Assembly (NCBI GenBank): GCA_965649295.1 | Contig: CBFGKH010000001.1 | Location: 192,001 to 256,000 of the forward strand | Direction: 5' to 3' | DNA: 64,000 nt | Source of the DNA: a candidate division WOR-3 bacterium | Lineage (GTDB): Bacteria > Hydrothermota > Tepidihabitantia > Tepidihabitantales > Tepidihabitantaceae | In this document: in pieces, positions 7,562 through 24,627 of the stretch | How the letters are laid out: the number at the start of each line of letters is the position of its first letter | Numbering within the stretch: position 1 is the first letter of the stretch | Program-made: the position numbers and the translations under genes | The notes under the pieces: model-generated | Databases searched by the model: none | Seen by the model: the letters and a program-made list of their open reading frames with translations, nothing else | What the model was told of the DNA's origin: nothing

Positions 7562-8454
7562 TGCTAGCTAGCAGACAAGGCTTGACACCCGAGGCTTTCC
7601 TAGACGAGTTTCTGCGAACTCTCCAGCCTGGCGTGATCCCGCGATCTGAATTCATCGCCTGGTCTGCTATTGACCAGACCGTCGCTTCTGCCAGAAAGAG
7701 CCTTGAGTATTTTGAATCGTCACTCGCAGCTGCGGGGAAGCAAAGCCTGCTGAAACAGGAGATTGCCGATGCCCTTCTTGCCGACGATGATCCAGAAATG
7801 CTGCTACGCACTGCTTTTGCCCTGCTCGGCCACACCGGCGACCTTTTCGTATCCTCAGTTGACGACCTATCCATCAGGCAAGCTGCGGACAGAATAGCTG
7901 CTGGCGACCGAAAACAAGCCGAGCTTGTTGCGTCAATACTCACTGACATCGGAATCCATCGTGTCATTAGTCGTGAAAACGTTGTTGATACCTTCTTCGG
8001 CGTTCAAGTGGGACTTGAGTGCAACAGAAGGAAGAATGTCGGCGGCGAGGCCTTCAAGAATGCCGTTAGTATTGAGCTTCGTCGCACTGTCAATGAACTT
8101 TCCAAACGATTTGACGGACTGCAACTGAAGGAAGAGCTCAAGATCGCCTACAGCGGCATCTCAAAGACGGTCGATTTCGCGATAATCAAAGACAGCGCCC
8201 CTATCGTAGGTTTTGAAGCCAACTTCTACACGACAACTGGTTCGAAGCCAACTGAGATCAAACGGTCTTATCAAGCGGTGACTCAAGGTCTCAAGTCGGT
8301 CGGCGTTGAGCTTGTTTGGGTTACTGACGGCAAAGGCTATCTTCACATGCGGCGCAGCCTCAAGGATGCCTTCCGGGTCTTACCCAACATATACAACTTG
8401 GCAATGCTCCACAAGCACCTCACTAGCGACCTCACTGCTCTTCTCTCACAATAA
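7561..8454 (+). CDS. DpnII-family type II restriction endonuclease (GATC)
   Basis: RKNVGG, KTVDFAI, EANFYTTTGSKPTE, VWVTDGKG motifs; TAATG stop-start overlap with the MTase; appears less GC-rich than flanks. Confidence 0.85.
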   Translation: MLASRQGLTPEAFLDEFLRTLQPGVIPRSEFIAWSAIDQTVASARKSLEYFESSLAAAGKQSLLKQEIADALLADDDPEMLLRTAFALLGHTGDLFVSSVDDLSIRQAADRIAAGDRKQAELVASILTDIGIHRVISRENVVDTFFGVQVGLECNRRKNVGGEAFKNAVSIELRRTVNELSKRFDGLQLKEELKIAYSGISKTVDFAIIKDSAPIVGFEANFYTTTGSKPTEIKRSYQAVTQGLKSVGVELVWVTDGKGYLHMRRSLKDAFRVLPNIYNLAMLHKHLTSDLTALLSQ

Positions 8455-8694: not shown

Positions 8695-9137
8695 CCGCTC
8701 AGACCAGCCCTAACTCCCGCCGGTAGAACCAGCTAGCCGACTTCACGCCCCTCTCCCCTCCATCGTCCCCGGGATGGTCTCCACACCCGCCTGCTGACAT
8801 TCTTGCATGGGACATTGGCATTCTCATTCCGTTATCCTTGCTGAATTGGCTTCTCTTTGGGTCATCCGAAAGGTTGGCACCGGTATCAGCACAGCTCATC
8901 TCCACTGCGTTTGCTTCAGGACTTCCCCGCCTCCTCGGCTAGACCTCACCTGACGAGTCAGCAGCGACCTTCGCCCTTGCGCTTCGCTCTCGCTCATCAG
9001 AGCTCCGCGCTAATCTCTCTGACAAAGAGCCGCTATCACTCCTGGTCTCGGCCCGGCGTATCTGGTACCGACAGGTGACGGCTAGTCCTTTAGTCTGTCC
9101 TCGTGCCCTTGGTGACGAACCGTGCTTCGCACCTGGT

Positions 9138-9165
9138 TTGACTCAGCCTCCAAGCAGGCTAGAAT
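9138..9165 (+). promoter_or_regulatory. Sigma70-type promoter for the iscS-like operon
   Basis: TTGACT-N16-TAGAAT. Confidence 0.7.
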
Positions 9166-9214
9166 CGGCTTGCCGGCTCTGAACCGGCACTACTCCGGCT
9201 ACTGTCTAAACTAT

Positions 9215-10456
9215 ATGATGCAGGCTTACTTCGACCACGCTGCTGCCTCGCCGCTGCTGCCCGAAGCCCGTGCTGCGATGTTACCTTTCCTCGAAACCGA
9301 TTTTGGCAACCCAGCTAGCCTGCATCGTTACGGTGAGAAACCCCGCCAGGCAATCGAAGCTGCCCGCCGTGAGGTTGCTGCGCTCATCAACAGTCAGCCT
9401 GAGGAGATTGTCTTCACCTCGTCTGGTTCTGAAGCAAACAATCACGCGGTGAAAGGCTTTGCCCTGGCCCGCCCGGATAAGGGCAAACACCTGATTGTGT
9501 CGGCAATCGAGCATGTGTCGGTGTTGGCCCCGGCCCGGTCATTGAAGAAGCTCGGCTTTGAGCTGACCGAACTCCCGGTTGACCGTAGCGGTGTCGTCCA
9601 TCCCGAAGAGCTCGCTGCCGCGATCCGGCCCGACACTGTCCTCGTTGCCGTGATGCACGCCAACTACGAGGTCGGCTCAATTCAGAATATCAAGGAGCTG
9701 GCCCGAATCGCGCATACCAAGGGCGTGCCCTTCTTCGCTGACGGCTGCGCTGCGGTCGGCCGCATCCCAGTTGATGTTGCCGAGCTTGGTGTTGACGCCT
9801 ACTCTTTCCCGGCCCAGTCAGTCTATGGGCCGAAAGGCGCGGCCGCGCTCTATCTCCGGCGGGGAACTCAGCTTCAGCCATTGATTGAAGGTGGTGTCCA
9901 GGAACGGAATCGGCGGGCCGGCACCGAGGATGTCGCCGCCATTGCTGGATTCGGCGCAGCCGCCGCCGTGGCCAGACAGCACCTTGCCGAATGGTCGCAG
10001 CACCTGAGCCGCCTGGCCAGCCGCATCATCACTGAGCTACCCGCGAAGCTCGAACGGGTCGTCTTGACCGGGCCGCAAGAGAACCGGCTTCCCGGTCACG
10101 TCTCGGTCTGTGTTGAGTTTGTCGAGGGCGAGGCGATGCTGCTTCTGCTCGACGACGAGGGCATCGCTGCTGCCTCTGGCTCGTCGTGCACTGCGAAGAC
10201 GCTCAAGGCATCACACGTCCTACTGGCAATGGGCCTGCCCCACGCGCTGGCCCAGACTTCACTGGTACTGACCTTGGGCAAGGATTCGACCGATGCCGAG
10301 GTAGCTTACCTCCTCGAAAAGCTGCCACCGATTGCCCAGCGACTGCGCCAGCTCTCTCCGCTCTATGCGAAGTTCAAGCGCGGCGAGGACCCGTATGCGA
10401 CCAAACCAAAAGCAGCCTGCGATGACCACGAACACCAAGTTGAAGCCGATGAATAG
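9215..10456 (+). CDS. iscS: IscS/NifS-family cysteine desulfurase homologue lacking the PLP lysine
   Basis: YFDHAAASP, FGNPASLH, FTSSGSEANN, SAIEH, GGVQE..RAGTE, SGSSCT; canonical HKxxGPKG reads QSVYGPKG. Confidence 0.88.
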   Translation: MMQAYFDHAAASPLLPEARAAMLPFLETDFGNPASLHRYGEKPRQAIEAARREVAALINSQPEEIVFTSSGSEANNHAVKGFALARPDKGKHLIVSAIEHVSVLAPARSLKKLGFELTELPVDRSGVVHPEELAAAIRPDTVLVAVMHANYEVGSIQNIKELARIAHTKGVPFFADGCAAVGRIPVDVAELGVDAYSFPAQSVYGPKGAAALYLRRGTQLQPLIEGGVQERNRRAGTEDVAAIAGFGAAAAVARQHLAEWSQHLSRLASRIITELPAKLERVVLTGPQENRLPGHVSVCVEFVEGEAMLLLLDDEGIAAASGSSCTAKTLKASHVLLAMGLPHALAQTSLVLTLGKDSTDAEVAYLLEKLPPIAQRLRQLSPLYAKFKRGEDPYATKPKAACDDHEHQVEADE

Positions 10457-10534
10457 GAGTGAATGCCCAGTGGCCAGCCCAAGACTGGCGGTCCGGCCCA
10501 AGCCACTGTCCACTGTGACTACTCAGGAGCGCTG

Positions 10535-10912
10535 ATGTACTCAGAGAAGGTAATGGATCATTTCCGCTCGCCCCGTAACGTTGGCGAGATTGAGAACCCG
10601 TCCGGTGTCGGCGAGGTTGGCAATCCGGTTTGTGGTGACATGATGACGTTCTACGTCAAGATTGAGAACGGCATCCTCACCGACGTCAAGTTCAAGACCT
10701 TCGGCTGCGGTGCGGCAATCGCGGTCTCCTCGATGGTCTCAGAAATGGCCATCGGCAAGACCGTTGAGGAAGCCCTGAAGATAACCAATGCCGATGTTGC
10801 CAAAGAACTCGGCGGCCTGCCGCCCAACAAGCTCCATTGCTCGAACCTTGGCGCCGACGCCTTGCACAAGGCGATCGAGGATTACCTTGCCAAGCAGCAG
10901 GAGAAGAAATGA
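10535..10912 (+). CDS. iscU: IscU/NifU-N Fe-S scaffold protein
   Basis: MYSEKVMDHFRSPRNVG, GNPVCGD, FKTFGCGAAIA, KLHCSNL; AGGAG SD before ATG 10535. Confidence 0.95.
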   Translation: MYSEKVMDHFRSPRNVGEIENPSGVGEVGNPVCGDMMTFYVKIENGILTDVKFKTFGCGAAIAVSSMVSEMAIGKTVEEALKITNADVAKELGGLPPNKLHCSNLGADALHKAIEDYLAKQQEKK

Positions 10913-11106
10913 AGTCGCCCAAAACGACCGCTTGCCGCTGTCCCTACTGCGCCGGGCCGACCGACAAGGAGGGGACAATCTGCACGCCCTGCAGCGTCAA
11001 GATTAGATTCTGTCCCACCTGCGGTAGTCCCCTGCCGCAGGGGTCTGACGATTGTCCCGAATGCGCCGGCAGCCACTCTGCCGGCAGAAAAAGGAAACAA
11101 CGATGA
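10909..11106 (+). CDS. Small double zinc-ribbon-like protein
   Basis: Four CxxC pairs (CPYC, CTPC, CPTC, CPEC); ATGA overlaps with both neighbours. Confidence 0.7.
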   Translation: MKSPKTTACRCPYCAGPTDKEGTICTPCSVKIRFCPTCGSPLPQGSDDCPECAGSHSAGRKRKQR

Positions 11107-11384
11107 CCCTCAATCATCAGTCCGGTACCAACAAGAATCACAAAGTCACCTTCTATGGTCTTTCCACCTGCGGCTGGTGCCGCAAGACCCGAGAATATCT
11201 TGACCAGCACAGCATCGACTACGACTGGATCTACGTTGACCAGACCACCGGCGACGAGCGCAACGAGGTAGTTGCCCGGGTCCGCGAGCTCAACCCGCGC
11301 GGCTCCTACCCAACCGTCGAGATTGATGGCCAGGTCGTGGTCGGCTATGACGAGGAAGAACTGGCCGACCTACTTGGACTATGA
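11103..11384 (+). CDS. Glutaredoxin/NrdH-like redoxin
   Basis: YGLSTCGWCRKT, NPRGSYPTVEID, VVGYDEE. Confidence 0.9.
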   Translation: MTLNHQSGTNKNHKVTFYGLSTCGWCRKTREYLDQHSIDYDWIYVDQTTGDERNEVVARVRELNPRGSYPTVEIDGQVVVGYDEEELADLLGL

Positions 11385-11902
11385 GCGGTGAAGAGTTTGC
11401 TCCCGAAGTAATCGCCGCCTATGAACGGTTGAAGAAAGAGGCCGAGGCGGGCGGCTACCGGCTCAACCCGGACCGAGAGTTCGTGCTCCGGCTGGTGCAG
11501 GGCCTACTCGAAAACGAACGCCGCTACGGCTACTGGCAATGTCCGTGTCGTCTCGCGTTCGGCGAACGGGCCAAGGACAAGGACGTCATCTGCCCCTGCG
11601 ACTATCGCGACGCCGACCTGGCCGAATACGGTGCCTGCTACTGTGCTCTCTACGTCACTGATGACTGGATTGCCGGCCGGAAACCGCACGGCTCAATCCC
11701 CGAACGCCGGCCGGAGAAGTTTATGAACGAAGGTTACCAGGAATCCACGCCGGTCAGCACCCCGCAGCCAGGACCAACTGCCGCGTTGGCCTATCCGGTC
11801 TGGCGCTGCCGCGTCTGCGGCTACCTCTGCGCCCGACCCGAGCCACCCGACAAGTGTCCTATCTGCAAGGTAACGAAGGACCGGTTTGAGAGGTTCATGT
11901 GA
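11381..11902 (+). CDS. Ferredoxin-thioredoxin reductase catalytic domain fused to rubredoxin (FDR-like)
   Basis: CPCR...CPCDY...CYCALY followed by WRCRVCGY...PDKCPIC. Confidence 0.9.
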   Translation: MSGEEFAPEVIAAYERLKKEAEAGGYRLNPDREFVLRLVQGLLENERRYGYWQCPCRLAFGERAKDKDVICPCDYRDADLAEYGACYCALYVTDDWIAGRKPHGSIPERRPEKFMNEGYQESTPVSTPQPGPTAALAYPVWRCRVCGYLCARPEPPDKCPICKVTKDRFERFM

Positions 11903-12219
11903 GTAATAAGGGAAATGTCATTGCTGAGCTGACCGTGGTCCCGCTCGGCACCGGTTCCACCAGCCTCAGTCAGTATGTCCGCATCGTCGAGCAGATGATT
12001 GCCGCCAGCGGCCTCGAACACACCCTGACACCGATGGGCACCTGCGTCCAAGGCGACCTCGATGCAATCTTTGCCGTCGTCAAGCAGGCCCACGCTGCGC
12101 TGGCTGCTGCCGGCTGTGCTCGCATCTCAACCCATATCAAGCTCGACGACCGCCGCGACAAAGAGCGGAAGATGCAGGACAAGATTGACGCTGTGCTGGG
12201 CAAGCCTGCCAGCCGCTAG
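11899..12219 (+). CDS. MTH1187/YqgV-family thiamine-binding protein
   Basis: IAELTVVPLGTGSTSLSQYV, LTPMGT, KLDDRRDK. Confidence 0.88.
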   Translation: MSNKGNVIAELTVVPLGTGSTSLSQYVRIVEQMIAASGLEHTLTPMGTCVQGDLDAIFAVVKQAHAALAAAGCARISTHIKLDDRRDKERKMQDKIDAVLGKPASR

Positions 12220-12228
12220 CTGCCAACG

Positions 12229-12912
12229 CTAGATCTGTTCTTCATCGAAGAACAGGTTGACGAACTGGATTCCCGGTGTCTTGTTCAGGTCCTCGATGAA
12301 ACGACTGCTGCCGGCCTTGTCGCGCAGCCGCACGTAGAACGAAGCCTCAACCAGCTCGGTGTCACCCAACGTTCGGACATTGATTGGCGTTACCTTCTGG
12401 CAGTGCCGGTCAAGCACCGCCTGATAGGTCGGCGTACTGCCGTCACCCGGTCGGTAGTTGAACTGAAGCAGGTAATCATCACGCCGGGGGGCGGCAAACT
12501 TCGCTTTGGCCAGCAGTAGCACGGTCAGACCGATAACAACCGTACCCACAACCGCAATGGTGTAGAAACCGACACCAGTCGCCATTCCGATTGCAAGGGC
12601 CAGGAACACGAAAACGATGTCCTGCGTGTTCTTCACCGCGTGCCGGAAGCGAACCACCGACAGGGCGCCGACCAGTCCGAATGCCCGGGCCAGGTTGTTG
12701 CCAATGACCATGATCATTATCGCCGTGGTCATGGCTAGAAGAATAAGCGTGTTGGTATAGGCAACAGAGTACCCTGGCCCGCGATAGGACTTGCGATAGA
12801 CCCAGGCAATGAACAAGCTACAGATAAAGGCTACTGCCAGCTTGAGCACAACGATTGGTGCTTCGAACGGCAGCAGGTTCAGCGAATGCACAAACTGCCT
12901 CAGAACCTCCAT
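12229..12912 (-). CDS. DUF4956 family membrane protein
   Basis: IMVIGNNLARAFGLVGALSVVRFR..VKNTQDIVFVF..LAIGMATG; several TM helices and a soluble C-terminal domain; ATG 12912 after GAGG. Confidence 0.88.
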   Translation of the reverse strand: MEVLRQFVHSLNLLPFEAPIVVLKLAVAFICSLFIAWVYRKSYRGPGYSVAYTNTLILLAMTTAIMIMVIGNNLARAFGLVGALSVVRFRHAVKNTQDIVFVFLALAIGMATGVGFYTIAVVGTVVIGLTVLLLAKAKFAAPRRDDYLLQFNYRPGDGSTPTYQAVLDRHCQKVTPINVRTLGDTELVEASFYVRLRDKAGSSRFIEDLNKTPGIQFVNLFFDEEQI

Positions 12913-12913
12913 A

Positions 12914-13768
12914 TTACCTCTCAGTTCCTGCCCTGGCACCAGCTACTGGGGCAAACTCGGTCCAATGCGCCACCCCGCCCAGAAATTTCTTCTCGCGCCG
13001 CTGCACTTCAATGCCGGTCGCATACTTTGAGAAAGCCTGCCGCTGGAGATTGAATCGGCTGAGCCAGTTCCGCAACCACGCTGGCAGCGTCAGATAGAAC
13101 TTCACCTCGAGGATGAAGTGACCGGGAATCAGGAATGTGGCGTCGCGATCCGAATATAGCGATTCGAGTGCCGGATAGAGCCGTGAACGAATGTTCTTGT
13201 CAAAGGTGATCCGTAACCGCGGATCGAAACGGCCGAAGAAGGCCTCCCGTTCGTAGGCGACCAGCACTACCGGCAGCAATCGGCGTCGGTAATAGTTGTA
13301 AAGGAACCGGCTGGCGGCTTCGGCCGCCGCCGATCCTGGCGCAAAGGGCAGTACCTCGTTCTTGGGCCCGTAGCCGGCAAAAACCGACGGCAACTGGTCC
13401 CAGCGCACCGGTGCGCGATGCTTACTGATGAAATCCTCGTACCGACGCTTGATTTCGAGAAAAACAACGCTGTCTGGCCCGAGCCGATCGTAGCCGCGAA
13501 TGCGAAACTTCTTCTTCAGCCGGAATCCGTCAAACTTCTCATAGTAGCAGCCGAACCGCCGATTGTCGTAATAAATGCTGCGCACGGTGTATTGCCGGTC
13601 CGGACGCTGGGCGGAGAACGGATCAAGCCGCACATACGGCATCATCGCTGCCCGCAACTCCCCCAGCAGCTCGTTCGCTACCATGAATTTGTACTCCAGC
13701 CGACCAACGGGTTCGGCCGGCTGACTGCCCCAAGCCGCCCGACCAGCCCGTACCCGCAACCAGCTCAC
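12914..13768 (-). CDS. VTC-domain (polyphosphate polymerase-like) protein
   Basis: RLEYKF, YTVRSIYYDN, KFRIRGY, FLEIKRR, YEREAF, RITFD, ILEVKF, FSKY. Confidence 0.9.
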   Translation of the reverse strand: MSWLRVRAGRAAWGSQPAEPVGRLEYKFMVANELLGELRAAMMPYVRLDPFSAQRPDRQYTVRSIYYDNRRFGCYYEKFDGFRLKKKFRIRGYDRLGPDSVVFLEIKRRYEDFISKHRAPVRWDQLPSVFAGYGPKNEVLPFAPGSAAAEAASRFLYNYYRRRLLPVVLVAYEREAFFGRFDPRLRITFDKNIRSRLYPALESLYSDRDATFLIPGHFILEVKFYLTLPAWLRNWLSRFNLQRQAFSKYATGIEVQRREKKFLGGVAHWTEFAPVAGARAGTER

Positions 13769-15396
13769 TCGCCAGCTCGCGCTACCACGAATCTGACACG
13801 CTGCTCGTCAGCACCCAACCTGGCGCCCGCGAAATAAACACCTGGCTCCAGCCCAAGTTGAGCCGGCCGCAGTTCAATGCGCTGACTACCAGCAGCAGCC
13901 GTAACCGGCTGCAATCGTGCTCGAACGCGTCCAAGGCCATCCCAGATAACTGGCTGTACCCACGTCGGCGTACTCAGTTCCAGCCGCAGTTCGGCTTGCT
14001 CGCGGCAGGGATTCGGTGTCACGATCAGCACTGCTGCCCTGGCCCGCCGACCGGTGTCGCGCTCGCTAATGCCCAGCACCGGATAGCGCGCTGTCGCGTA
14101 GTCGCTGCCCGTGCTGCCACCATCGCTAGTGCCAGTGACGCAGATACCGTGGTCAGCATCAGCGACCATTGCCACTGGTTCATCGAGCCTGCTCGCTGGC
14201 CCATCGTAGCGATAGACCCAGCACTGGTTACCGAACGAGTCATAGACAACCGTGGCGTAGTCGTTGCGCGTACCATCGCCAGTACTCGTTCCAGCCACCG
14301 CCACCCAGCTGCCGTAATCGTCCACCGTAATCGCTCGCGCCTCATCAAACCCATGGCCTGGTCCGTCATAGCGCGCGACCCATTCCTGTCCGCCGCCACT
14401 ATTGAACTTCAGCGTCACGAAGTCGAAGTCGTTCTGGGTATCTTGACTGTAGCCGGTAACATAGACATTGCCCCAGTAATCAACCTCGATGGCATTGGCC
14501 CAGTCCACGCCATTGGCCGGCCCATTGTAGGTGACTGCCCAGAGTGACTCGCCGGTTGAGCCGTACTTGACGACGGTCAGATCAACACTGCTGGTCAGCC
14601 CAGTTGTACCGCCGGCAACACAGACGTTGCCGAACCGGTCGAGCACCATCGCCTTGACTTCATCATCGTCGTCGGCCTGACCATTCAGTCGCCTGACCCA
14701 CAGGGTCTCACCAGTCCGACCATCGAACTTGGCAGTCACCATGTCCCAGCGCAAGGTGTAGGGACTACCACTGTTGCCAGCGGCATAAACGTCGCCATTG
14801 GCATCAACCGCCACTGCCACCGCGTAGTCAAATTCGGGAGTCACATAGCTGCTGACCCAGCGCCGAACTCCGTCGCTGCCGTATTTGAGCACACACCAGT
14901 CCCATTCGGTCCCGGCACCGCTCTGATAGCCGGCAGCAATAATAGCTCCCGAGCTGTCGAATGCGACTGCCAGCCCATCTTCATTGCCCGCTGCCGGCCC
15001 GTCGTAGCAGGCTGACCAGATTGGCGTGCCGTTTGTGGCGTCATGAACGAGCAGCAGCGCATCGGTCATGAAATTGCTGGCGGTTACGCTGCCCGCAACC
15101 GCTACCCGTCCTCGGGCAACAGCAATTGCCCGACCTTCATCTGCTCCCTGCTGCGTACCGTCATAACGCATCGCCCAGAGCGATTCGCCGGCAAGACTAT
15201 ACTTGATTGTCAGCACATCGAACGAACTGCCGCCCCAGCTCGTTCCGGTCACATAGACACCGCTGGCATCGTTGGCGGCAATCGCTGCCGCCCTGTCCTC
15301 ATCGTTTGCTGGCCCGTTATAGCGCATTACCCAGCTCGAACCAGTACATAGTCCGGCCAGCACAACCAGTAGTCCTATCAACTGTTTGCATCTCAT
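13765..15396 (-). CDS. Secreted beta-propeller (SBBP-like repeats) with T9SS-like C-terminal domain
   Basis: Signal peptide; about 7 repeats of W..RYDGP...D.A.AIAVD..GNVYVTG.S; C-terminal PNP...IWDGLGR...GVYF. Confidence 0.8.
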   Translation of the reverse strand: MRCKQLIGLLVVLAGLCTGSSWVMRYNGPANDEDRAAAIAANDASGVYVTGTSWGGSSFDVLTIKYSLAGESLWAMRYDGTQQGADEGRAIAVARGRVAVAGSVTASNFMTDALLLVHDATNGTPIWSACYDGPAAGNEDGLAVAFDSSGAIIAAGYQSGAGTEWDWCVLKYGSDGVRRWVSSYVTPEFDYAVAVAVDANGDVYAAGNSGSPYTLRWDMVTAKFDGRTGETLWVRRLNGQADDDDEVKAMVLDRFGNVCVAGGTTGLTSSVDLTVVKYGSTGESLWAVTYNGPANGVDWANAIEVDYWGNVYVTGYSQDTQNDFDFVTLKFNSGGGQEWVARYDGPGHGFDEARAITVDDYGSWVAVAGTSTGDGTRNDYATVVYDSFGNQCWVYRYDGPASRLDEPVAMVADADHGICVTGTSDGGSTGSDYATARYPVLGISERDTGRRARAAVLIVTPNPCREQAELRLELSTPTWVQPVIWDGLGRVRARLQPVTAAAGSQRIELRPAQLGLEPGVYFAGARLGADEQRVRFVVARAGE

Positions 15397-15397
15397 A

Positions 15398-16930
15398 CTA
15401 GCGCCCCTTCACAATCTGTCTTACCAGCCGTTCTGGAGCCGAACCGTCGGCCGGGACCAGCCTGAGCGCCACGAAATAGACCCCGCGCGTCAGACCTGAA
15501 CCCGGCCTAAACTCAACTGCGACGGTTCCGGTCGGCTGCTGCGCGTCAATCAATCGCGCCACAACCCGGCCAGTAGCGTCGTAAACCTCGAGCGTTACCC
15601 AGCCGGGCGACGGCAACTCACAACTGATGGTAGTGGATTGGTCGAAAGGTGAACCCACCGCGACTGCTAGTTGCCTGCTCGCTAATGGTGCCTTATCCTC
15701 CACACCAGTTGCGAAGTCACGCGGATACTTCAGACAGCGCCCAATCTGCCCGCCGAGACTCCGGGTCCAGACCACCGAACCAGAAGGTGTAATCTCCTGG
15801 ACAACACCGGTCGTACCAAGAATGGCGAACGTATTGCCGTTAGGCAGACGGTAGGCGCCGCCGAGATGCTGTGAATAGAAAGCGCTGCCGTTAGAGTAAG
15901 ACCAAGTTCGTGTTCTAGGCCCAAATGCCGAATCCGGAGCAATGTAGTAGTTGCCCTCTGAGTCGAGCGGCGGTGTTATCTGGATGACTTCTGAGTAGTC
16001 GTTGGCAGTGCCTGACCGATCACCGTTGTTGAGCACGATAATGTCACCCGCGCCCGGCAGGCCCGGCCGAATCCAGTTCGCGCCATGCACCACGTAGAAG
16101 ACTCGGTCGGCAGCTGTGCCGCGGTCATAGTTCTGAGGATTGCCCCAGCGATAGAGAAAATCACCGCCCCGCCCACGCCTGCCGCCAGTGTGGCCGGCTG
16201 CTTCAGCCGTGGTCGTACTGTGGTCAATCACAAAGATTTCGTGCAGATTGTGCGAGGTGAGAATTATCTCATCTCGCTCGGCATTGTAGTCAATGGTATT
16301 GCAGTGCATCCAGTCGCCGTTCTGAACTGTGCCGAGATTGATGTCAAGTAATTCCGGATGCTCGGCGACAACACCGTAGTTAGGCAACGCTGGGTTGACG
16401 TCCTGAATCAGGTGATCCCAGAAGTGCCACTCCCAGACGACCGCGTTGCTCACCGGGTCGTACTCAATTACCTCGTCTGGCCAGATTTCACCGGTGATAT
16501 TCTGTCGGCCGAGCGCCTGCGCCTGCGCCGCCGTCTTGCGCTCCCATGATATCAGCAGAACATGACCGTTCGGCATCACACAGAAATCATGGTGCTGTTG
16601 ATGGTTTGCATTCGACCAGATGAAGCTCTCGACGATGTTACCGTTCCAGTCATACTGCTGCATCAGCCCACCGTAGGCAGCGCCGCGCATCGTCGCCCCG
16701 GAATAGACATCACCACGCCAGATAGAACTGTCCGGCATCAGGTAAGCGACGTAAGCGCAGTTGACCGTGCCAGTCCAAGACCGCACTGTCTGGCCGTTGT
16801 TGTCAATCAACCGGGTCGTCCGGCTATTCATTAGGTTGTACAGCGTCAGACCATCAAATACCTGCGCTGAGACAACTCCCGCCAGACTGCATACAGCCAT
16901 AAACGCAGTCAGTGTTGTTCTCTTCAGCAT
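15398..16930 (-). CDS. Aryl-sulfate sulfotransferase (ASST)-family secreted protein with T9SS-like C-terminal domain
   Basis: QHHD..MPNGHVL, VWEWHFWDHLIQD, DWMHCNTIDY, LYRWGNPQNY, RLPNGNT; C-terminal VYDATGRVV...GVYF. Confidence 0.82.
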   Translation of the reverse strand: MLKRTTLTAFMAVCSLAGVVSAQVFDGLTLYNLMNSRTTRLIDNNGQTVRSWTGTVNCAYVAYLMPDSSIWRGDVYSGATMRGAAYGGLMQQYDWNGNIVESFIWSNANHQQHHDFCVMPNGHVLLISWERKTAAQAQALGRQNITGEIWPDEVIEYDPVSNAVVWEWHFWDHLIQDVNPALPNYGVVAEHPELLDINLGTVQNGDWMHCNTIDYNAERDEIILTSHNLHEIFVIDHSTTTAEAAGHTGGRRGRGGDFLYRWGNPQNYDRGTAADRVFYVVHGANWIRPGLPGAGDIIVLNNGDRSGTANDYSEVIQITPPLDSEGNYYIAPDSAFGPRTRTWSYSNGSAFYSQHLGGAYRLPNGNTFAILGTTGVVQEITPSGSVVWTRSLGGQIGRCLKYPRDFATGVEDKAPLASRQLAVAVGSPFDQSTTISCELPSPGWVTLEVYDATGRVVARLIDAQQPTGTVAVEFRPGSGLTRGVYFVALRLVPADGSAPERLVRQIVKGR

Positions 16931-16983
16931 TCAAGACCTCCTACTACGTTGGGACGAACGAATCGGCAGCGTCTTGCTGGCGC

Positions 16984-19254
16984 TCATCTTGTCATCACTA
17001 GCTTAGTACAGGTTGAACCGCCGCCGTTCACGGTAAGCTGGACAAAGTAAACTCCAACGCCCCACCCTGACTCGGGACGGAAGTCAAACGTGTGCCAACC
17101 CAGTGTCGGCTGATACTCATCCTGCCCAGCGGCCAGCCGACCGGCCGCATCATAGACTCGCAGCGAGACCCTGGCCGGGCAGGGCAGCAAGTAACTGATT
17201 CTCGTTGAGCTCCGGAATGGATTGGGCAGGGCGACCAGCTGATACCGGCCGTCGGTTACGGTCACCACTTCTTCACTCACACCAATGCCACTCTGGTTTG
17301 CTCTGTCCGGTGTCGGGCTCATCAGCCGGAACAAGCCAGCGCCGTCCGGAAAACGCCCGTAGCTGATGTCTGCTCTTTGTGGCCCGAACGTTACACGATC
17401 GAGTGGCCGACCGTCATCATCGGCAAACAGCACTGTCTCGCCTGAACTTGAGAGTTGGAAGTTGGCATGTAGCCCAGGTTGATTGGTATCGCCATCGGCC
17501 CAAACCAGAAGATACCCTCCAGCGGGAATCGTTACATCGGGAAACACCCACTTGGCGATGGTAGCCGAGTCATCAGTCAGCAGAAATCCATCTAGAGCAA
17601 CCGCACTGTTCGTCGGGTTATGCAACTCAATCCAGTCGTCATACTCCCCAGCCGGGTCACGGACTGTGCTAACATTGTCCGCCATTAGCTCATTGATGAC
17701 AACCCTACCCGTCACCGGTAATGATAGGTATTCCTGTTCAGCCCGTGCCGGCGCGAATGTGCCGGCACCTCTGTTCTCCGCATAGATGTAATAGTGGACA
17801 TCACCGGAGCCGATTCTCACCGCTGTTCCGTAGCGGCCGTCACCAGCAGCGCCGTCACCGTGCAGCCCGTCATCGTACAGCGGTGTTAACACAAATCTCA
17901 ACCCTGGACTCTGACCCCAGCCAACCCAGACTGAGTCAGCATTAGCGACATCAGCAGTGAACTGCAGTAGGCCGCCCGGCACCGCCGGGCAAGGATTGGC
18001 AGTCACGGCACCAATAGTCGGGGACGATGCGCGAAACTCGCTATCGTTCAAGATGAAGCTGACGCGAGGATTCATCAGCTCAGTCAGCCCGACGACCGCC
18101 AGCGGCCCAGTTCCAACCGACCGGGTAATGTTGTTCAGAAAGTCGTTGTAACTGTAGAACTTGTTCGGGTCAGCCTGAACGTAGGAATCAATGATATCCT
18201 GAATCTCTAGCGCCCGCTGTCGGTACCAGTTGTTCGAAAAGACCTCGGCGATCATCGTCTTCATGTGGGCGACGTACATCCGTCGCAGCCGCGGATTGGA
18301 CAGAATCTTGCTCGCAATCGGGTAGTTCGTGTCGTTCTGCCGCAGGAATGGGTCAAGCTGCTGCATCTGACCCAGCGTCAGGGTTCCGACGCCGATAAGA
18401 TTGCGAAACACACCGAAGCTCTCGTTTAGGTCCCAGACAATCGGATTGAACCGCCGAGCCGCATCTCGATACAGATAGAAGTTCTGCGGCATGTTGATTG
18501 GTGCATCAAGATTCACAAGCAGCGCATCGAACGCCAGCATCCAAAGGTGGCGATCAACGTTCAGCACTCGGTCAACCACCTCCGTGAAGTTGTTTAGAGT
18601 GTCGAGCAAACTAACAAGCTCGGTCCAGCCCGAGTCAGACTGCAGTTCGAAGTAGTCGCGGTACGGTGTCGGGTCCGGCCCCAGATACTTCCAACCAATC
18701 ATCTGGGAGTTGTTCGTCAGCCGGCCCTTGAATCGAGCGTTCTCGTCACAGTAGAAGTGGGTACGCATGAACATCCGGTCCGGGTCCTCATTGTTGCTGT
18801 ACAAACCCAGTAACGTGTCGTTGACGTAGATGTTAGCGTAGTTGGACCTGCCGGCTGGCATGTACAGCCTGGCAATCTCATAGCTCAGCGCCTCGCGTAC
18901 GAAACTTGGGTCATTGAAGACATTGGCCAGCCGTAGCGTACCGTGTCCCTCAATCGTCTGACCAGGACGAACATAGTCGAGCTTGATATTGAAGGGATTC
19001 TTGCGCCGACCCGGCGAATAGGAAGAACCGCCCTTGTAGCGCACACCCACGCTGTCGAATCGCTGACCATTGATTACCGCCGTACCAATCAGCCGACCCT
19101 CTTCGCCCGCCGCATACAGGCTGTCGAGAATCTCATCCCAGTTTGGCTCAGCGAAGCTCAGTCTGATTTCGTTCACCTGTTCGATGTCAAAGAAGCCGGC
19201 GCTTGCTATCGTGAGACCAAGAAGCAGAGTTCCCGCCAGCCGTTGCCTGCCCAT
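16984..19254 (-). CDS. CotH-family secreted kinase with lamin-tail domain and T9SS-like C-terminal domain
   Basis: VGVRYKGGSS, DPSFVRE.LSYE, NFYLY, IVWDLNESFG; LYDDGLHGDGAAGDG module; VINELMADN..DWIELHN (LTD); PNPF...VYDAAGR. Confidence 0.88.
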   Translation of the reverse strand: MGRQRLAGTLLLGLTIASAGFFDIEQVNEIRLSFAEPNWDEILDSLYAAGEEGRLIGTAVINGQRFDSVGVRYKGGSSYSPGRRKNPFNIKLDYVRPGQTIEGHGTLRLANVFNDPSFVREALSYEIARLYMPAGRSNYANIYVNDTLLGLYSNNEDPDRMFMRTHFYCDENARFKGRLTNNSQMIGWKYLGPDPTPYRDYFELQSDSGWTELVSLLDTLNNFTEVVDRVLNVDRHLWMLAFDALLVNLDAPINMPQNFYLYRDAARRFNPIVWDLNESFGVFRNLIGVGTLTLGQMQQLDPFLRQNDTNYPIASKILSNPRLRRMYVAHMKTMIAEVFSNNWYRQRALEIQDIIDSYVQADPNKFYSYNDFLNNITRSVGTGPLAVVGLTELMNPRVSFILNDSEFRASSPTIGAVTANPCPAVPGGLLQFTADVANADSVWVGWGQSPGLRFVLTPLYDDGLHGDGAAGDGRYGTAVRIGSGDVHYYIYAENRGAGTFAPARAEQEYLSLPVTGRVVINELMADNVSTVRDPAGEYDDWIELHNPTNSAVALDGFLLTDDSATIAKWVFPDVTIPAGGYLLVWADGDTNQPGLHANFQLSSSGETVLFADDDGRPLDRVTFGPQRADISYGRFPDGAGLFRLMSPTPDRANQSGIGVSEEVVTVTDGRYQLVALPNPFRSSTRISYLLPCPARVSLRVYDAAGRLAAGQDEYQPTLGWHTFDFRPESGWGVGVYFVQLTVNGGGSTCTKLVMTR

Positions 19255-19269
19255 CGCGTTAATCAGGAA

Positions 19270-20259
19270 TCACCGCCGGCGGCCAGAATTGGAGCGACCC
19301 GGCGTAGGTACCGGTAGTAGGCGCCAGGTGTCACCGCCATCCGGAAGCCTCCCGTAGGCGGTGTCCGGGGCCTGCGGGCCAAAACTCAAAGTATCAACTA
19401 TCAGAATGTTGTGGCCGCTTGCCTGGTACAGACCAACCTGCTCACCGACCGCTGCCCCCAGGCTGAAAGTCGCGTGCAGTGGCCCTTCCGCTGGCTCATT
19501 GTCGGCCCAGACCAGTAGAAAGCGTCCTGGCCCCAGCACCACATCCGGAAACGGCCACTTGGTCGGTTGGGAGAGGTCGTCGGTCAGATAAACCCCCTTA
19601 AGCCCTATCGGTTCGCTACCGGCATTGTAGAGTTCAATCCAGTCATCGTAGTCACCGGCCTCATCGATCACCACCGTGTGGTTGGAAGCAAGAAACTCAT
19701 TTATGAAAAGCAGATGGGCCAGACTCGATTCGCCAGTCGAGTTGGCTGCGCCCGGAGTTGGTGCCCAGAGCCGTCGCCACTCACCACCATCCGGAACGCG
19801 CCCCATCGAAGTATCGGCTCCCTGAGGACCGAATGATAACGTGTCAATAACGAAAAGCCGCTCACCGTTTGTGGCATAGAGCCCAAGCTGCTCGCCGCTG
19901 TCAGCATTGAGCCGAAAAGAGGCGTGCAGTGCGCCCTGACGATACTCAGCATCAGCCCAGACGATGAGAAACCCGCCGGCTGGGATGAACGTATCCGGGA
20001 AAGACCACTTCATCGGCCGGGAAAGGTCGTCGGTGAGGAACATAGTGCCCAAGCGCAGACTCGTATCCCCAGCATTGTACAGCTCGATCCAGTCCGCGTA
20101 GTCGCCGAACTCATCAGCCACGGTCCGCTTGTTTGAAGCCATGAACTCGTTTATGAATAGAGTCCCGTGTAGCGGTGATTCGGCTGGCTGTGTCGGGCCA
20201 GCGCTGCAACCGCCAGCCAAGAATACTACTGCCACAATCAGAACCGTTCGTCGGCTCAC
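19270..20259 (-). CDS. Lipoprotein with two lamin-tail domains
   Basis: Lipobox LAGGC; two copies of INEF(M/L)ASN...DE.GDY.DWIELYN...LTDDLS.P.KW...PTPG. Confidence 0.85.
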   Translation of the reverse strand: MSRRTVLIVAVVFLAGGCSAGPTQPAESPLHGTLFINEFMASNKRTVADEFGDYADWIELYNAGDTSLRLGTMFLTDDLSRPMKWSFPDTFIPAGGFLIVWADAEYRQGALHASFRLNADSGEQLGLYATNGERLFVIDTLSFGPQGADTSMGRVPDGGEWRRLWAPTPGAANSTGESSLAHLLFINEFLASNHTVVIDEAGDYDDWIELYNAGSEPIGLKGVYLTDDLSQPTKWPFPDVVLGPGRFLLVWADNEPAEGPLHATFSLGAAVGEQVGLYQASGHNILIVDTLSFGPQAPDTAYGRLPDGGDTWRLLPVPTPGRSNSGRRR

Positions 20260-20272
20260 ATCTCACCTCCGA

Positions 20273-21262
20273 CTAGAAACTCGCCTGGGTCTGAATTCTT
20301 ATCTCCTGGGCAAAGGTCGGCCGCGAAGTGAAGTCCGCGGTCCAACCTACCTTTAGCTGTAACTGCTGTTGCAGCTGCCACGTACCTCCGACAGTTGCAG
20401 TTGTCCGCCAGTCACTGCGTCTCAGAATATCCTGATAGAACCGTTCCAATCGCAGCCAGGGTCTGGCCGGCCCAATCCGATATGCTCCTGTCAGTGTCGC
20501 GCCGAGCATAGTCGTCCCCGCATCAGCCGCACCGACCAGCAGCTCAGCTTCGGCATCGGCATTGCCCAGACACAGACTGGCATCAGCGCCATAGGCAATG
20601 ACCAGTCTGCCTGTTACCGAATCATGACGCTGGGTTGCGTTGAGACCAAAGTTGACGCCGCTGGCCGGTTTGAGCTCGATGCGCTGAGCTAACTGCTTGG
20701 CGTCGTTATCGTCACGGGCAAGCCGCGTACCGGTGCCGTTATACACACCTGCCGCGTAGCTGAGTAACAGCGAACCGAGCCGCAGGTCACCCATCGTCGT
20801 AAGACCGATGTCACGGCCAAGAAAACCCCGGTCAGCAAAAGCCTCATTGGTGATGCCACGCTCAATTGCCAGGAGCTTGCTCGCCGCTGTTAGTTCCTCG
20901 CGGCTGAACGGCAGCTTGCCCAGCCCAACAACGAGCTTCAGGCCGGACAACGCCTGATATCCGACAAATGCATCCTTGATTTCGGGTATCAACTCATCAC
21001 AGCCAAGCTCGATGCCAGACTGAAGCCTTGTTTGCTGGTAGTTGAACCTGACCCTGATCCGACGCAGGATGAAGCTGTGGTGCGGATAGACGCCAACGTG
21101 AGTATCGTAGTACCACTGGGCGTGAACGTAGCCACTTACTTCTGGCCGCTTCGCCCCACTTTGCCCACTGCCGGTAGCCAATCCGGCCAGGAGGGCGACG
21201 ATCAGCAGCAGCGCACTAGTCCGCACTGTATCTTTGCGCACAGAGCAGCCCACTCTGTGCAA
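20273..21262 (-). CDS. Outer-membrane porin, OprO/OprP (phosphate-selective)-like
   Basis: Signal peptide, F.LRR.R, KDAFV, K.PFSRE.L.....L..IER, GRDIG, YAAGVYNG.G, terminal Phe; true start probably near 21226. Confidence 0.7.
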   Translation of the reverse strand: MHRVGCSVRKDTVRTSALLLIVALLAGLATGSGQSGAKRPEVSGYVHAQWYYDTHVGVYPHHSFILRRIRVRFNYQQTRLQSGIELGCDELIPEIKDAFVGYQALSGLKLVVGLGKLPFSREELTAASKLLAIERGITNEAFADRGFLGRDIGLTTMGDLRLGSLLLSYAAGVYNGTGTRLARDDNDAKQLAQRIELKPASGVNFGLNATQRHDSVTGRLVIAYGADASLCLGNADAEAELLVGAADAGTTMLGATLTGAYRIGPARPWLRLERFYQDILRRSDWRTTATVGGTWQLQQQLQLKVGWTADFTSRPTFAQEIRIQTQASF

Positions 21263-21279
21263 GTAACCACTCGAATACC

Positions 21280-21325
21280 ATTGTAGGCCGTGCCTTTAGG
21301 ACTACAAGTGTTAACACAGTGTTTA
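21280..21325 (-). promoter_or_regulatory. Promoter with an upstream Pho-box-like 11-bp direct repeat
   Basis: TACAAT -10 (21280-21285), weak TTGTAG -35, and TAAACA-CTGTG-TTAACA at 21309-21325. Confidence 0.5.
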
Positions 21326-21418: not shown

Positions 21419-22132
21419 TCACTGCCCGACCTGACCGGAAACGACAGCCAGGGCACCCTCAAGCCTGAATGCCCGCTTTTCTCGGCCAAGTCTGGCCCAG
21501 AGCGCAGCCGAGTACTCACCAGCCTCAAACCCAGCCGGCACCGCTATTGTCGGGTTGAACTCGCCTTTGGGGATGAGCAATAGCACTTTAGAACTCTCGG
21601 CCGCACTGCTACCGGTTGCCGGCCGATGGAATGTCACCTCGAGCCAGCGGCTGTCTCGGGCATTACCACTGACTGTCAGAATCCGTTGGCCGTCCCTTGT
21701 GCCGACCTGGGTTTCCAACGCCGCCAGCGAATCGGCCAAGCGCAACTTCTCCGGTCCACTCGTGACCGAGCCCTTGCCTAGTGCCTTCAGCCCAACCGGC
21801 CGCACCGCTACCTCATCATCACCCAGCTTCCGCTGCCATAGCCCGACCTCGTAACTCCCCTGATAGTAGTCAGCCGGTATCGGCACCGGCAGCAGGAACC
21901 TGCCCTTGACCGAATATACTGTCCGCTGGCCCTGGCAGGTCGAATCTGGCTCGCCTGGCCGAAAGAAGGTCACTGCCAGCCAGTCACTGGCGTCAGGTGC
22001 GACACCGGTAACTTCGAGCACCGGCCTGCCTTCCTTTTTACTGACTCGCGCTGACAAGGTCGGCAGCGAATCTCCAGCGACTGCCGGCTGAACCAGCACA
22101 AGGGACAGAAAGAACAACATCGGCTTCGACAT
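21419..22132 (-). CDS. Secreted hypothetical protein with an internal two-domain duplication
   Basis: GGAGGTG SD, signal peptide, two copies of DSL..L......G..L.V.G.A....WL.VTF.RP...KG.F...P......G.Y...LW..LG. Confidence 0.7.
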   Translation of the reverse strand: MSKPMLFFLSLVLVQPAVAGDSLPTLSARVSKKEGRPVLEVTGVAPDASDWLAVTFFRPGEPDSTCQGQRTVYSVKGRFLLPVPIPADYYQGSYEVGLWQRKLGDDEVAVRPVGLKALGKGSVTSGPEKLRLADSLAALETQVGTRDGQRILTVSGNARDSRWLEVTFHRPATGSSAAESSKVLLLIPKGEFNPTIAVPAGFEAGEYSAALWARLGREKRAFRLEGALAVVSGQVGQ

Positions 22133-22169
22133 TAGCACCTCCAGCAGGTCGGTCTGGAATGCAAGCTGA

Positions 22170-22198
22170 TTGACGAACCTCAGGCCCGTCCGTATGAT
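22170..22198 (+). promoter_or_regulatory. Sigma70-type promoter for the TonB-dependent receptor
   Basis: TTGACG-N17-TATGAT. Confidence 0.65.
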
Positions 22199-22233
22199 AC
22201 GCCAAATAGCACCTGTTGCAATCGGAGGTAGTG

Positions 22234-24627
22234 ATGGCAAAGCTCGTCCTCTTTTTTCTCCTCTGCCGCCAAGCCCTAGCTACTTTAACGCCGACCGGTA
22301 GCATTGCTGGTTACGTCATCGATGCCGCCACCCGCTCACCACTACCTGGCGCCAGCGTGACCGTTGTCGGCACCGAACTTGGGGCTGCTGCCGATGCTGC
22401 TGGCCGTTTTGTGATTAACCGTGTTCCGGTTGGCATCCACACGGTTGAAGCCTCAATGATCGGTTACGCAGCCCAGGCCCGTACCAACAGCGTAGTCAGC
22501 CCAGGCCGCCAGACTGAACTCTCCTTCCGACTCAGCCGGGCACGAATCAGTATCGGTGAAGTCACGGTTCGTGTCGAACACTTTCCCCGCGTCAAGGACG
22601 CAGCTGTCTCCCAGCGCAACTTTGCCGCTCAGGAGATTGAAATTGCTCCGGGCGGGCTGGGCGACATTCAACGCGTTGTCCAAGCGATGCCCTCGGTTGT
22701 CTCCTCCGGTGACCAAGACAATGAGGTCATCGTCCGCGGCGGCAGCCACAATGAGAATCTCTTCCTGATTGACGGGATTGAAATTCCCTATCCAAACCAC
22801 TTCGGCTCGTTTGCAGCCCAAGGTGGTCCGGTCAACATTCTCAACCCTCTGCTCGTTCGGGAAGTTGATTTCGTGGCCGGTGCTTTTCCGGCCCGCTACG
22901 GTGGCCGCGCCTCTTCAGTGATGGATATCAGCCTCAAACGCGGCTCGCTCGAAGAACTGGACGGCAGTATTGATATGGGGATGGCCGGGCTTGGTGTTGT
23001 GTTCGAATCACCGCTGCCCGGCCGCACCGGCTCATTCATCGGTTCCTATCACAAGAGCTTTCTGGAGCTGATGGCCCGGATGGGTGTCTGGGGAATGTCT
23101 GCAGTTCCCTACTACGACAACGCACTGGGCAAGGTGATTCTTCGCCCCTGGCCTGGTCATGAGTTCTCGCTGTTAGGACTGTGGGGCAGCGACCACATCT
23201 ACATCGGACCGGGCGAGAACGTGGACGAGAATACCTATACGATTAGGCAACAAACGCAGCGCTACGCCGGTGGCTTCGGCTGGCAAAGCCTGTTCGGCAA
23301 CCACGGCTATGGCCGACTGCTCTTGTCAACCAACAGCACTTCCTGGAACGCCTTTGTCCATGAGAGTACAGACGTCAACGACACGCTCCAGTCCCTCAAG
23401 TCGTCTGTCGGCACGCTCGCGGCCCGCTACGACGCTGCCCTGCGACTCGCCCCGGGCCAAGAGACACAGACTGGTGTGATGCTAAGCCGCACACCGGCTG
23501 ACATGCAGTTCTTTCTCAAGCCCTCGCCTTTCTACCGCTATCTCTACAACCCCGACAGCTCGATTGCCGACTCGTTTCCCGTGCTTGACTCGGCCGGCAA
23601 TCCAACCTACTGGACGATGAATAGCTACGGCCAGGCCAGCTCGGTCAACCTTTCGGCCTACCTCTCCCACCGCATCGAGCTCGGCCGTCTTCTTGATGTC
23701 ACTGCTGGGTTGCGGCTCGACCGTTTCGGCTACACCGGCGCGACAAGCATCGCTCCCCGCCTTGGCATCGCCACCCATCCTCTCTTCGGTGGTGCCAGCC
23801 TGCATGCCGGCTGGGGCTGGCACTTTCAGCCACCAGAGTGGTACATCCTCTTTGCCGACACGGTTGCCAACCGCAATCTCCGTGACCGCCGCAGCGACCA
23901 CTATGTTGTCGGGATAGAACGCCGGTTCGGTCAGGACATCAGGTTGTCGCTCGAGGGCTTTGTCAGGCGCAGCCGCTACCTTCCAATCCCCTACTCGGCG
24001 ACTACGCCCGACACCTACGACTATCCCAGTAACTACCTAGCTCAGGGCCGTGGCGGGTCAGAGGGACTTGAGCTCTTCGTCCAGAAGAAGCACGCTGGTA
24101 ACTGGCACGGTTCACTCGCCTACTCTCTTTCCCGTTCTTGGGTCATCGCTGCCCAAGACTCGACCATCCGCTACCCTGGCGACTACGACTACCGCCACAT
24201 CCTGACGGCTGCCGGCACCTACACGATCGAGTTCCACAAGCAGCAATGGTATCAGCACCTGCCGGGCTGGTTCCGCTCCACCATCGGTGGCCTGCTCTTC
24301 TCCGACGTAGCGGCCATTGGCCTGCGCTGGCGCTACCTGAGCGGCCGGCCCTATACCGAACCAAGCTGGAATCCGGAGATTCGTCGCTGGATTGCCGCTC
24401 CTGCGAACCTGAACAACCAACGCTATCCGGATTACCACCGCCTCGACATTCGCTGGGACCACAAGTTCTTAATGAAACGCTGGAGCCTCAACTGGTACCT
24501 CGAAATCCAAAACGTCTATGGGCGCCGCAATGTCTGGATGTATCAGTACAACGACGGCAATCCAGACCGTAGGACAGTTTATGGCCTAGCATTCTGGCCG
24601 ATGGCGGGAATGGTCATCGAGTTCTAG
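22234..24627 (+). CDS. TonB-dependent receptor with N-terminal carboxypeptidase-regulatory-like domain
   Basis: GSIAGYVIDA.T..PLPGA, plug VRGG...ENLFLIDGIEI..PNHF, GAFPARYG, YHRLDIR, terminal Phe; GGAGG SD. Confidence 0.9.
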   Translation: MAKLVLFFLLCRQALATLTPTGSIAGYVIDAATRSPLPGASVTVVGTELGAAADAAGRFVINRVPVGIHTVEASMIGYAAQARTNSVVSPGRQTELSFRLSRARISIGEVTVRVEHFPRVKDAAVSQRNFAAQEIEIAPGGLGDIQRVVQAMPSVVSSGDQDNEVIVRGGSHNENLFLIDGIEIPYPNHFGSFAAQGGPVNILNPLLVREVDFVAGAFPARYGGRASSVMDISLKRGSLEELDGSIDMGMAGLGVVFESPLPGRTGSFIGSYHKSFLELMARMGVWGMSAVPYYDNALGKVILRPWPGHEFSLLGLWGSDHIYIGPGENVDENTYTIRQQTQRYAGGFGWQSLFGNHGYGRLLLSTNSTSWNAFVHESTDVNDTLQSLKSSVGTLAARYDAALRLAPGQETQTGVMLSRTPADMQFFLKPSPFYRYLYNPDSSIADSFPVLDSAGNPTYWTMNSYGQASSVNLSAYLSHRIELGRLLDVTAGLRLDRFGYTGATSIAPRLGIATHPLFGGASLHAGWGWHFQPPEWYILFADTVANRNLRDRRSDHYVVGIERRFGQDIRLSLEGFVRRSRYLPIPYSATTPDTYDYPSNYLAQGRGGSEGLELFVQKKHAGNWHGSLAYSLSRSWVIAAQDSTIRYPGDYDYRHILTAAGTYTIEFHKQQWYQHLPGWFRSTIGGLLFSDVAAIGLRWRYLSGRPYTEPSWNPEIRRWIAAPANLNNQRYPDYHRLDIRWDHKFLMKRWSLNWYLEIQNVYGRRNVWMYQYNDGNPDRRTVYGLAFWPMAGMVIEF

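Follow-up and report, generated by a model that had tools for sequence, protein, structure and literature searches.

A conserved VTC, DUF4956 and CotH gene trio in a candidate division WOR-3 bacterium and a possible polyphosphate supply for a surface kinase

Exported kinases need a phosphoryl donor in a place where there is little ATP, and an operon of a candidate division WOR-3 bacterium raises the question of what that donor could be and how it would get there. We analyzed the operon within a window of 64,000 nucleotides (the whole stretch under study; assembly GCA_965649295.1, contig CBFGKH010000001.1, positions 192,001 to 256,000), in whose numbering the operon and its flanks are given. 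Seven genes encode, in order of transcription, an OprO/OprP-family porin, a protein with LTD domains, an exported CotH atypical kinase, an ASST-like protein, a beta-propeller, a VTC protein and a DUF4956 membrane protein. The co-orientation and close spacing described in the initial annotation of the window were confirmed, all seven genes lying on the minus strand and separated by between −4 and 53 bases (from the porin to DUF4956: 13, 15, 53, 1, −4 and probably 1 base).

We suggest that polyphosphate is made in the cytoplasm, exported and used as phosphoryl donor by the CotH kinase at the cell surface. The proposal draws on gene linkage, domain content and residue states, and we hold it tentatively, at a little below an even chance. 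The VTC, DUF4956 and CotH genes, here called the trio, form a conserved system that earlier publications describe next to pel genes, with no mechanism given, and that occurs here in a different genomic setting.

The gene trio within and beyond the phylum

VTC, DUF4956 and CotH have one match each in this genome. In a survey of 201 genomes of the phylum, the kin among which are not independent, DUF4956 exceeded its cut-off in 15 genomes (a sixteenth match was weak and fell under it), and VTC and CotH matches were found in the same 15 (14 of those for CotH over the cut-off). Seven of the 14 other trio genomes have the full order of porin, LTD, CotH, ASST (one to three copies), propeller, VTC and DUF4956 on one contig; of the remaining loci, three are split by contig ends, two are rearranged and two have other layouts, one of these with a stop in VTC. 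The LTD protein stays in place in the relatives, carrying one or two LTDs, and the genes flanking the operon are not kept among them. Among named sequences, those closest to the DUF4956 protein are labelled candidate division WOR-3 (67–70% identity) and Candidatus Stahlbacteria, which makes WOR-3 the probable affiliation of the host. One VTC match in the survey contains an in-frame TGA and lies beside a divergent CotH (L021, G007:C5:3770-4414).

Outside the phylum, metagenome matches to DUF4956 numbered at least 592; we studied the best 80, selected by DUF4956 motifs, together with four of nine plasmid-collection records. VTC was located beside DUF4956 in 73 of the 80 metagenome loci, and in the other seven the contig ends no more than 2.7 kb away. 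Where at least 4 kb of sequence was available on each side, VTC was always present (21/21 loci) and CotH was found in 16 (17 counting a weak Pfam match). An HlyD-type adaptor was observed in 14 of the 80 loci, directly before VTC in most of them, while phylum-built profiles, which may miss distant forms, detected the porin once and the ASST and propeller proteins not at all (1/80, 0/80 and 0/80). Among the plasmid records, two from Bacillota contain the trio amid glycosyltransferase genes, and two from Bacteroidota (L114, 7971-10911; L115, 6778-10018) combine DUF4956 with an HlyD-type adaptor, in L115 with TolC too. A single-protein scan of the genome collection gave three loci, one of them spurious.

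The linkage of VTC, DUF4956 and CotH, which the initial annotation treated as known from existing annotations, is borne out by the same 15 of the 201 phylum genomes and by most of the well-covered metagenome loci. Of the co-occurrence with CotH, porin, LTD and ASST genes that had been envisaged, the link to CotH was recovered outside the phylum, whereas porin, ASST and propeller are mostly confined to it. Outside the phylum, an HlyD adaptor often takes their place. Judged from gene content, VTC and DUF4956 together with CotH make up the core, and the part serving the outer membrane can be exchanged. The porin, the ASST-like protein and the propeller appear to be largely phylum-specific additions. 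The identities of VTC and DUF4956 are correlated (Spearman 0.69), which was given no weight because shared descent alone yields such a correlation.

The outside loci also contain a second CotH class (approximately 900 aa, with a beta-helix and His for the catalytic Asp), found beside VTC and DUF4956 at L052, L054, L064, L067, L072, L079 and others, frequently accompanied by a 340-aa protein that belongs to no Pfam family. At L098 (2150-7312), DUF4956, LTD and VTC genes are followed by one for a five-repeat Cthe_2159 protein where CotH would be.

The trio has precedents in print. As far as the accessible texts go, cotH, a poly-phosphate polymerase gene and DUF4956 appear as accessory genes at the pel loci of Gram-positive bacteria (bioRxiv 10.1101/768473), and the trio is also found in the Clostridium perfringens locus NELoc-2 (PMC2879425). 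The same three folds are described for SIR_1592-1594 of Streptococcus intermedius in a preprint whose accessible part expects the polyphosphate to remain cytoplasmic and finds the trio only in pel operons (bioRxiv 10.1101/2024.04.20.589940). The present locus contradicts this pel-only occurrence. A domain search found no pel or glycosyltransferase domains among the operon and flanking genes. The operon resembles the Gram-positive pel cassettes, in so far as those sources portray them, in joining a secreted CotH, a cytoplasmic VTC and an MgtC-like membrane protein with an ACT domain; it differs in its two-membrane host, in having no pel or glycosyltransferase gene and in the added porin, LTD, ASST-like and propeller proteins and tails resembling those of the type IX secretion system (T9SS). 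No published mechanism for bacterial polyphosphate secretion, or for its use as a kinase donor, was found in the literature searched, which left most subscription journals outside its scope.

Predicted polyphosphate synthesis and a proposed path across the membranes

The VTC gene (12914..13768, minus strand; PF09359, 131.5 bits) encodes a cytoplasmic triphosphate tunnel protein, a predicted polyphosphate polymerase, whose open reading frame (ORF) of 284 aa matches Vtc4 structures at E 9e-6. Residues R264, R266, E426 and K458 of Vtc4 correspond to R89, R91, E221 and K248 here, and K200 to K27, the C-terminal stretch of the alignment being a motif match that is below significance alone. All five residues are invariant in the 72–73 homologues covering each site. 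We take K200 and K458 of Vtc4 to have catalytic roles, and R264, R266 and E426 are catalytic in the yeast enzyme according to the accessible text of PMC9911596. On the same source, the likeness to the eukaryotic VTC complex (Vtc4/Vtc3/Vtc1; PDB 3g3q, 7ytj and 8i6v) extends from the tunnel enzyme with its identical catalytic residues to the coupling of synthesis and membrane passage, proposed for both. Unlike the eukaryotic protein, the VTC of the operon has no SPX domain, PF09359 being the sole domain in its ORF, and no fused membrane domain, and an RxExK motif (E25 in 70/70 bacterial sequences) replaces the RQTTK of Vtc4. With this glutamate invariant, hydrolysis or short products are possible as well. 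A VTC frame of 595 aa was seen at L093 and is not established as a fusion. As the first step of the proposed mechanism, VTC would polymerize the gamma-phosphate of ATP, as the intact Vtc4 catalytic residues suggest.

The crossing of the inner membrane is the weakest step. The DUF4956 gene (12229..12912, minus strand; Pfam DUF4956, 58 bits) was called as an ORF from 12939 to 12229, and its start is likely the ATG at 12912, which has GAGG upstream and gives a 227-aa product matching the length of its homologues. The predicted structure (predicted local distance difference test score 77) has five long membrane helices and a C-terminal cytoplasmic ACT domain, and the latter aligns with the C-terminal domain of MgtC (2lqj; ACT fold, Z 8.5, root mean square deviation 3.1, 82 aligned). 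The MgtC profile was matched by 53 of 65 DUF4956 members; the present protein scores 23.6 bits, below the cut-off of 31.4, and is a relative rather than a member of the family. When the whole model was used for a fold search, the matches listed were ACT domains and archaeal-virus coat helices; no chain of the VTC channel was among them, the list being filled by the ACT domain. Predicted complexes of three DUF4956 chains with VTC scored 0.01 and 0.03, against a mark of 0.32, and were given no weight either way.

Since DUF4956 is related to MgtC, the system does not, by homology, amount to the yeast channel in two pieces, and the place of DUF4956 is taken in the eukaryotic complex by a partner of the DUF202/Vtc1 type. 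The initial annotation had read VTC and DUF4956 as a split polyphosphate synthase-translocase: the tight linkage and the kept Vtc4 catalytic set agree with that reading, while the MgtC relationship and the lack of DUF202 do not. For this reason it is gene context, and not homology, from which we predict that DUF4956 is an inner-membrane passage or docking part. A motif, S-x-x-R-F-R-x-x-x-K, is nearly invariant among the loci, which were selected on it, and lies where the third membrane helix is predicted to reach the cytoplasm. In the second step, a DUF4956 oligomer would dock VTC, and the chain would cross the inner membrane through the conserved basic mouth of R87, R89 and K93.

For the outer membrane, the operon provides the porin (20273..21262, minus strand, start probably GTG at 21226; PF07396 Porin_O_P, 27.1 bits against a cut-off of 20.9). 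A 12-sequence profile of the porin matches OprP (2o4v, E 2e-4) and OprO (E 6e-4) and places an RR pair in register with R59/R60 of the arginine ladder of OprP, and the protein is predicted to be a conduit for phosphate anions. Operon-type porins scoring above 250 bits were found in 14 of the 15 trio genomes (the profile contained the porins of 10 of the 13 other genomes, and the rest are not all independent of kinship); distant O/P porins were found in 23 other genomes. In the third step, the polymer would leave through this porin or, in other lineages, through an HlyD(-TolC) duct, as the exchangeable gene content suggests.

Alternatively, polyphosphate could stay in the cytoplasm, with DUF4956 acting as an MgtC-like sensor or regulator of phosphate or ATP status and CotH using ATP of its own. 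A regulatory DUF4956 would agree with the MgtC architecture described above, and the S. intermedius preprint, in its accessible part, likewise keeps the polymer in the cytoplasm (bioRxiv 10.1101/2024.04.20.589940). This explanation leaves unaccounted for the adjacency of VTC to exported kinases and to envelope ducts, whether porin or HlyD. Furthermore, PPK2 was found in none of the 201 phylum genomes and PPK1 in two, so that the usual means of turning stored polyphosphate into nucleotides were not found in these cells, and the CotH pocket lacks the tyrosine that would hold adenine (see below). We consider a purely cytoplasmic role unlikely. On another contig, this genome contains a cluster of ppk1, CHAD, metallophosphoesterase/HD and alkaline phosphatase genes (L135, G000:C8:134875-140720), and VTC is therefore not its sole polyphosphate synthase.

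The candidate donor of the CotH kinase

The CotH gene (16984..19254, minus strand) encodes an exported atypical kinase (PF08757, 135 bits) with a choice-of-anchor X domain, an LTD (59 bits) and a T9SS-like tail. It belongs to the fold family of the Bacillus spore CotH (PDB 5jd9/5jda) and retains both catalytic aspartates, D250 and D275 here and D228 and D251 in the B. subtilis numbering, taken from the accessible text of bioRxiv 10.1101/469122. In contrast to the spore protein, it adds a signal peptide, the LTD and the export tail, and its nucleotide pocket is altered. According to the same text, the B. cereus structure has adenine sandwiched by Tyr142 and Trp245 (bioRxiv 10.1101/469122). HMMER and hhalign agree that the Tyr142 site is K176 here; this takes the two numberings to differ by one residue, as set by Trp245 being W246 of the chain, and MAFFT placed the spore Tyr one column off, the HMMER and hhalign placement being used.

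The adenine site is Tyr in all 113 motif-matched spore CotH sequences (7 of 120 were unmatched). Of the 49 linked CotH sequences, counted by hand, 36 have Lys or Arg there, one has Tyr and seven have another residue, while five could not be aligned. An extra arginine before the Gly-rich loop, R72 here, is Arg or Lys in 41 of the 49 linked sequences and in 1 of the 120 spore ones, and the second adenine aromatic is kept as Trp274 in 38 of the 49, including this one. The contrast between the linked pocket and that of the ATP-using spore CotH is a new observation here. Basic residues in place of the adenine Tyr are what a polyphosphate donor would predict, and the pocket, with the Tyr lost and basic residues gained, fits polyphosphate as donor, which is not proof. 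The earlier suggestion of a surface kinase fuelled by polyphosphate thus gains a pocket that differs from the spore one in the expected direction, in residue states only. In the fourth step, CotH, exported by a T9SS-like route, would bind the polymer in this pocket and phosphorylate surface proteins or glycans.

Several observations weigh against polyphosphate export and its use by CotH, besides the kinship among the surveyed genomes. Across the CotH family, lysine is the general rule at the adenine position (130 of 160 domains, from library representatives of unknown context; with matches up to E 1e-10, the family counts 25,132 cluster representatives) and so may be ancestral and uninformative on the donor, and the Tyr/Lys contrast is one of a single spore clade with the rest. 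His replaces the catalytic D250 in 13 of the 49 linked CotH sequences. Four of the 21 well-covered metagenome loci have no nearby CotH and an HlyD-type adaptor in its stead, and at the Bacteroidota plasmid loci L114 and L115, VTC was undetectable within 8 kb. OprO/P porins are known as uptake channels. DUF202, the Vtc1-type family, was matched by none of the 65 DUF4956 members, which leaves no homology to the Vtc1 channel, and a VTC fused to a membrane domain was not found among 7155 longer-form candidates, a weak test. Finally, the accessible text of one preprint describes MgtC relatives as regulators and not channels, and reports that single deletions of each trio gene in S. intermedius left Pel and aggregation nearly unchanged (bioRxiv 10.1101/2024.04.20.589940).

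An exported donor need not be long polyphosphate, and tripolyphosphate, pyrophosphate or a nucleotide could serve CotH instead. The RxExK motif of the bacterial VTC, with its invariant E25, is closer to other tunnel enzymes than the RQTTK of Vtc4 is, OprO favours short polyphosphates, and most linked CotH sequences retain Trp274, the second adenine aromatic. However, every Vtc4 catalytic residue checked is kept, and the export of ATP needs no tunnel enzyme; we regard these other donors as improbable. More doubtful still is that polyphosphate is exported as a surface polyanion (a metal chelator, a counter-ion for cationic polysaccharides or a mineral nucleator), with CotH as a binding or co-regulated partner that does not consume it. 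The loci with an adaptor and no CotH, the linked CotH sequences lacking the catalytic Asp and the frequent placement of loci amid glycosyltransferase or pel genes would suit such a role, but the CotH studied here has both catalytic Asp residues, and CotH accompanies the VTC–DUF4956 pair in 15 of 15 phylum genomes. Just as doubtful is an inward flow. In that case polyphosphate or phosphoesters would be collected by surface enzymes and the porin and brought in by DUF4956, and VTC would hydrolyse them or regenerate ATP. The kinship of the porin with OprP/OprO, the existence of triphosphatases among tunnel enzymes and the presence of pyrophosphatase or metallophosphoesterase genes close to a few loci speak for this reading. 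Against it, the alternative partner, HlyD(-TolC), consists of export parts, and the exported partner that stays constant is of the kinase type rather than a phosphatase.

Accessory genes, neighbourhood and wider meaning

Export to the surface is suggested by the C-terminal tails of CotH, the ASST-like protein and the propeller, which resemble one another (E 2e-17 to 2e-7). The three tails had been likened to T9SS signals; two fall just below the TIGR04183 (T9SS type A) cut-off (21.6 and 19.6 against 23) and the propeller tail has no TIGR04183 match. SprA_N and PorV matches are present in the genome (motor genes were outside that search), and with tails near the type A cut-off, surface delivery of the tailed proteins is plausible.

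The remaining operon genes encode a probable lipoprotein with two LTDs (19270..20259, minus strand; two PF00932 domains, 87 bits; lipobox judged by eye), the ASST-like propeller with its tail (15398..16930, minus strand; PF05935 Arylsulfotrans, 72 bits) and an SBBP-repeat beta-propeller with signal peptide and tail (13765..15396, minus strand; PF06739, 41.5 bits). These three might be local scaffolds, substrates or secondary transferases. The domains named for the seven products in the initial annotation were each confirmed by Pfam over the family cut-off (signal peptides were judged by eye), with cautions on DUF4956, which is not Vtc1-like, and on the ASST-like protein, in which one defining residue failed.

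In an alignment to E. coli AssT (PDB 3elq; weak overall match, E 0.04), H114, H209 and N211 of the ASST-like protein correspond to His252, His356 and Asn358. An invariant H282, outside this alignment and in the order expected for the catalytic His436, is probably its equivalent. The sulfate-binding Arg374 is replaced by H227; at this site, 26 of 28 linked copies have His, and 9 of 15 unlinked ones have Arg. Compared with AssT as described in the accessible text of PMC13426309, the protein thus keeps the three aligned residues and a His at the probable His436 site, whereas, judged by its length, it has no N-terminal sandwich; it also bears an export tail and has His for Arg374. Because this Arg is replaced by His in most linked copies, the protein, on its residues, should not be filed as a sulfotransferase as it stands. 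We rejected it as a core part, since 11 genomes that do not have the trio carry a second subfamily, of which one further copy lies in this genome. In genomes lacking the trio, ASST-like genes were also seen in tandem arrays of two to four (L125, L126, L127 and L128), and the Arg374 site varies in them.

Around the operon, the 3' end abuts a convergent gene for a thiamine-binding protein (11899-12219, plus strand), the last in a run (9122-12219, plus strand) with a cysteine desulfurase-like aminotransferase, a NifU-like scaffold (by eye), a glutaredoxin and a ferredoxin-thioredoxin reductase beta/rubredoxin-like fusion. An N6/N4 methylase and a DpnII-family endonuclease form a pair at 6569-8454 (plus strand). 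Upstream of the porin, a 273-aa ORF (21419-22240, minus strand) has a signal-like start and apparently two internal repeats; it has no Pfam or NCBIfam match and was not found at related loci. A TonB-dependent receptor-like gene (22216-24627, plus strand) diverges from the operon, an adjacency not conserved at related loci. A promoter and terminator scan stayed at chance level (7 against 5.4 and 12 against 10.7), and no RNA holder was among the matches listed.

Taken together, these genes could belong to a widespread prokaryotic machine that threads polyphosphate outward as a surface energy currency, with most CotH proteins being polyphosphate-dependent ecto-kinases, the ATP-using spore enzyme an exception, and the ASST-like protein, its sulfate Arg lost, a polymer-fed ping-pong phosphotransferase in this phylum. 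So broad a reading is speculative, and we would sooner expect it to fail than to hold. The Tyr/Lys contrast pins the choice of donor to a single CotH position that can be tested, and such tests are practical, as all three core families are present (in the genome, linkage aside) in Bacteroides thetaiotaomicron, Corynebacterium glutamicum and Methanosarcina acetivorans. The trio thereby offers a testable answer both to the question of the donor of exported kinases and to that of how polyphosphate would leave the cell.

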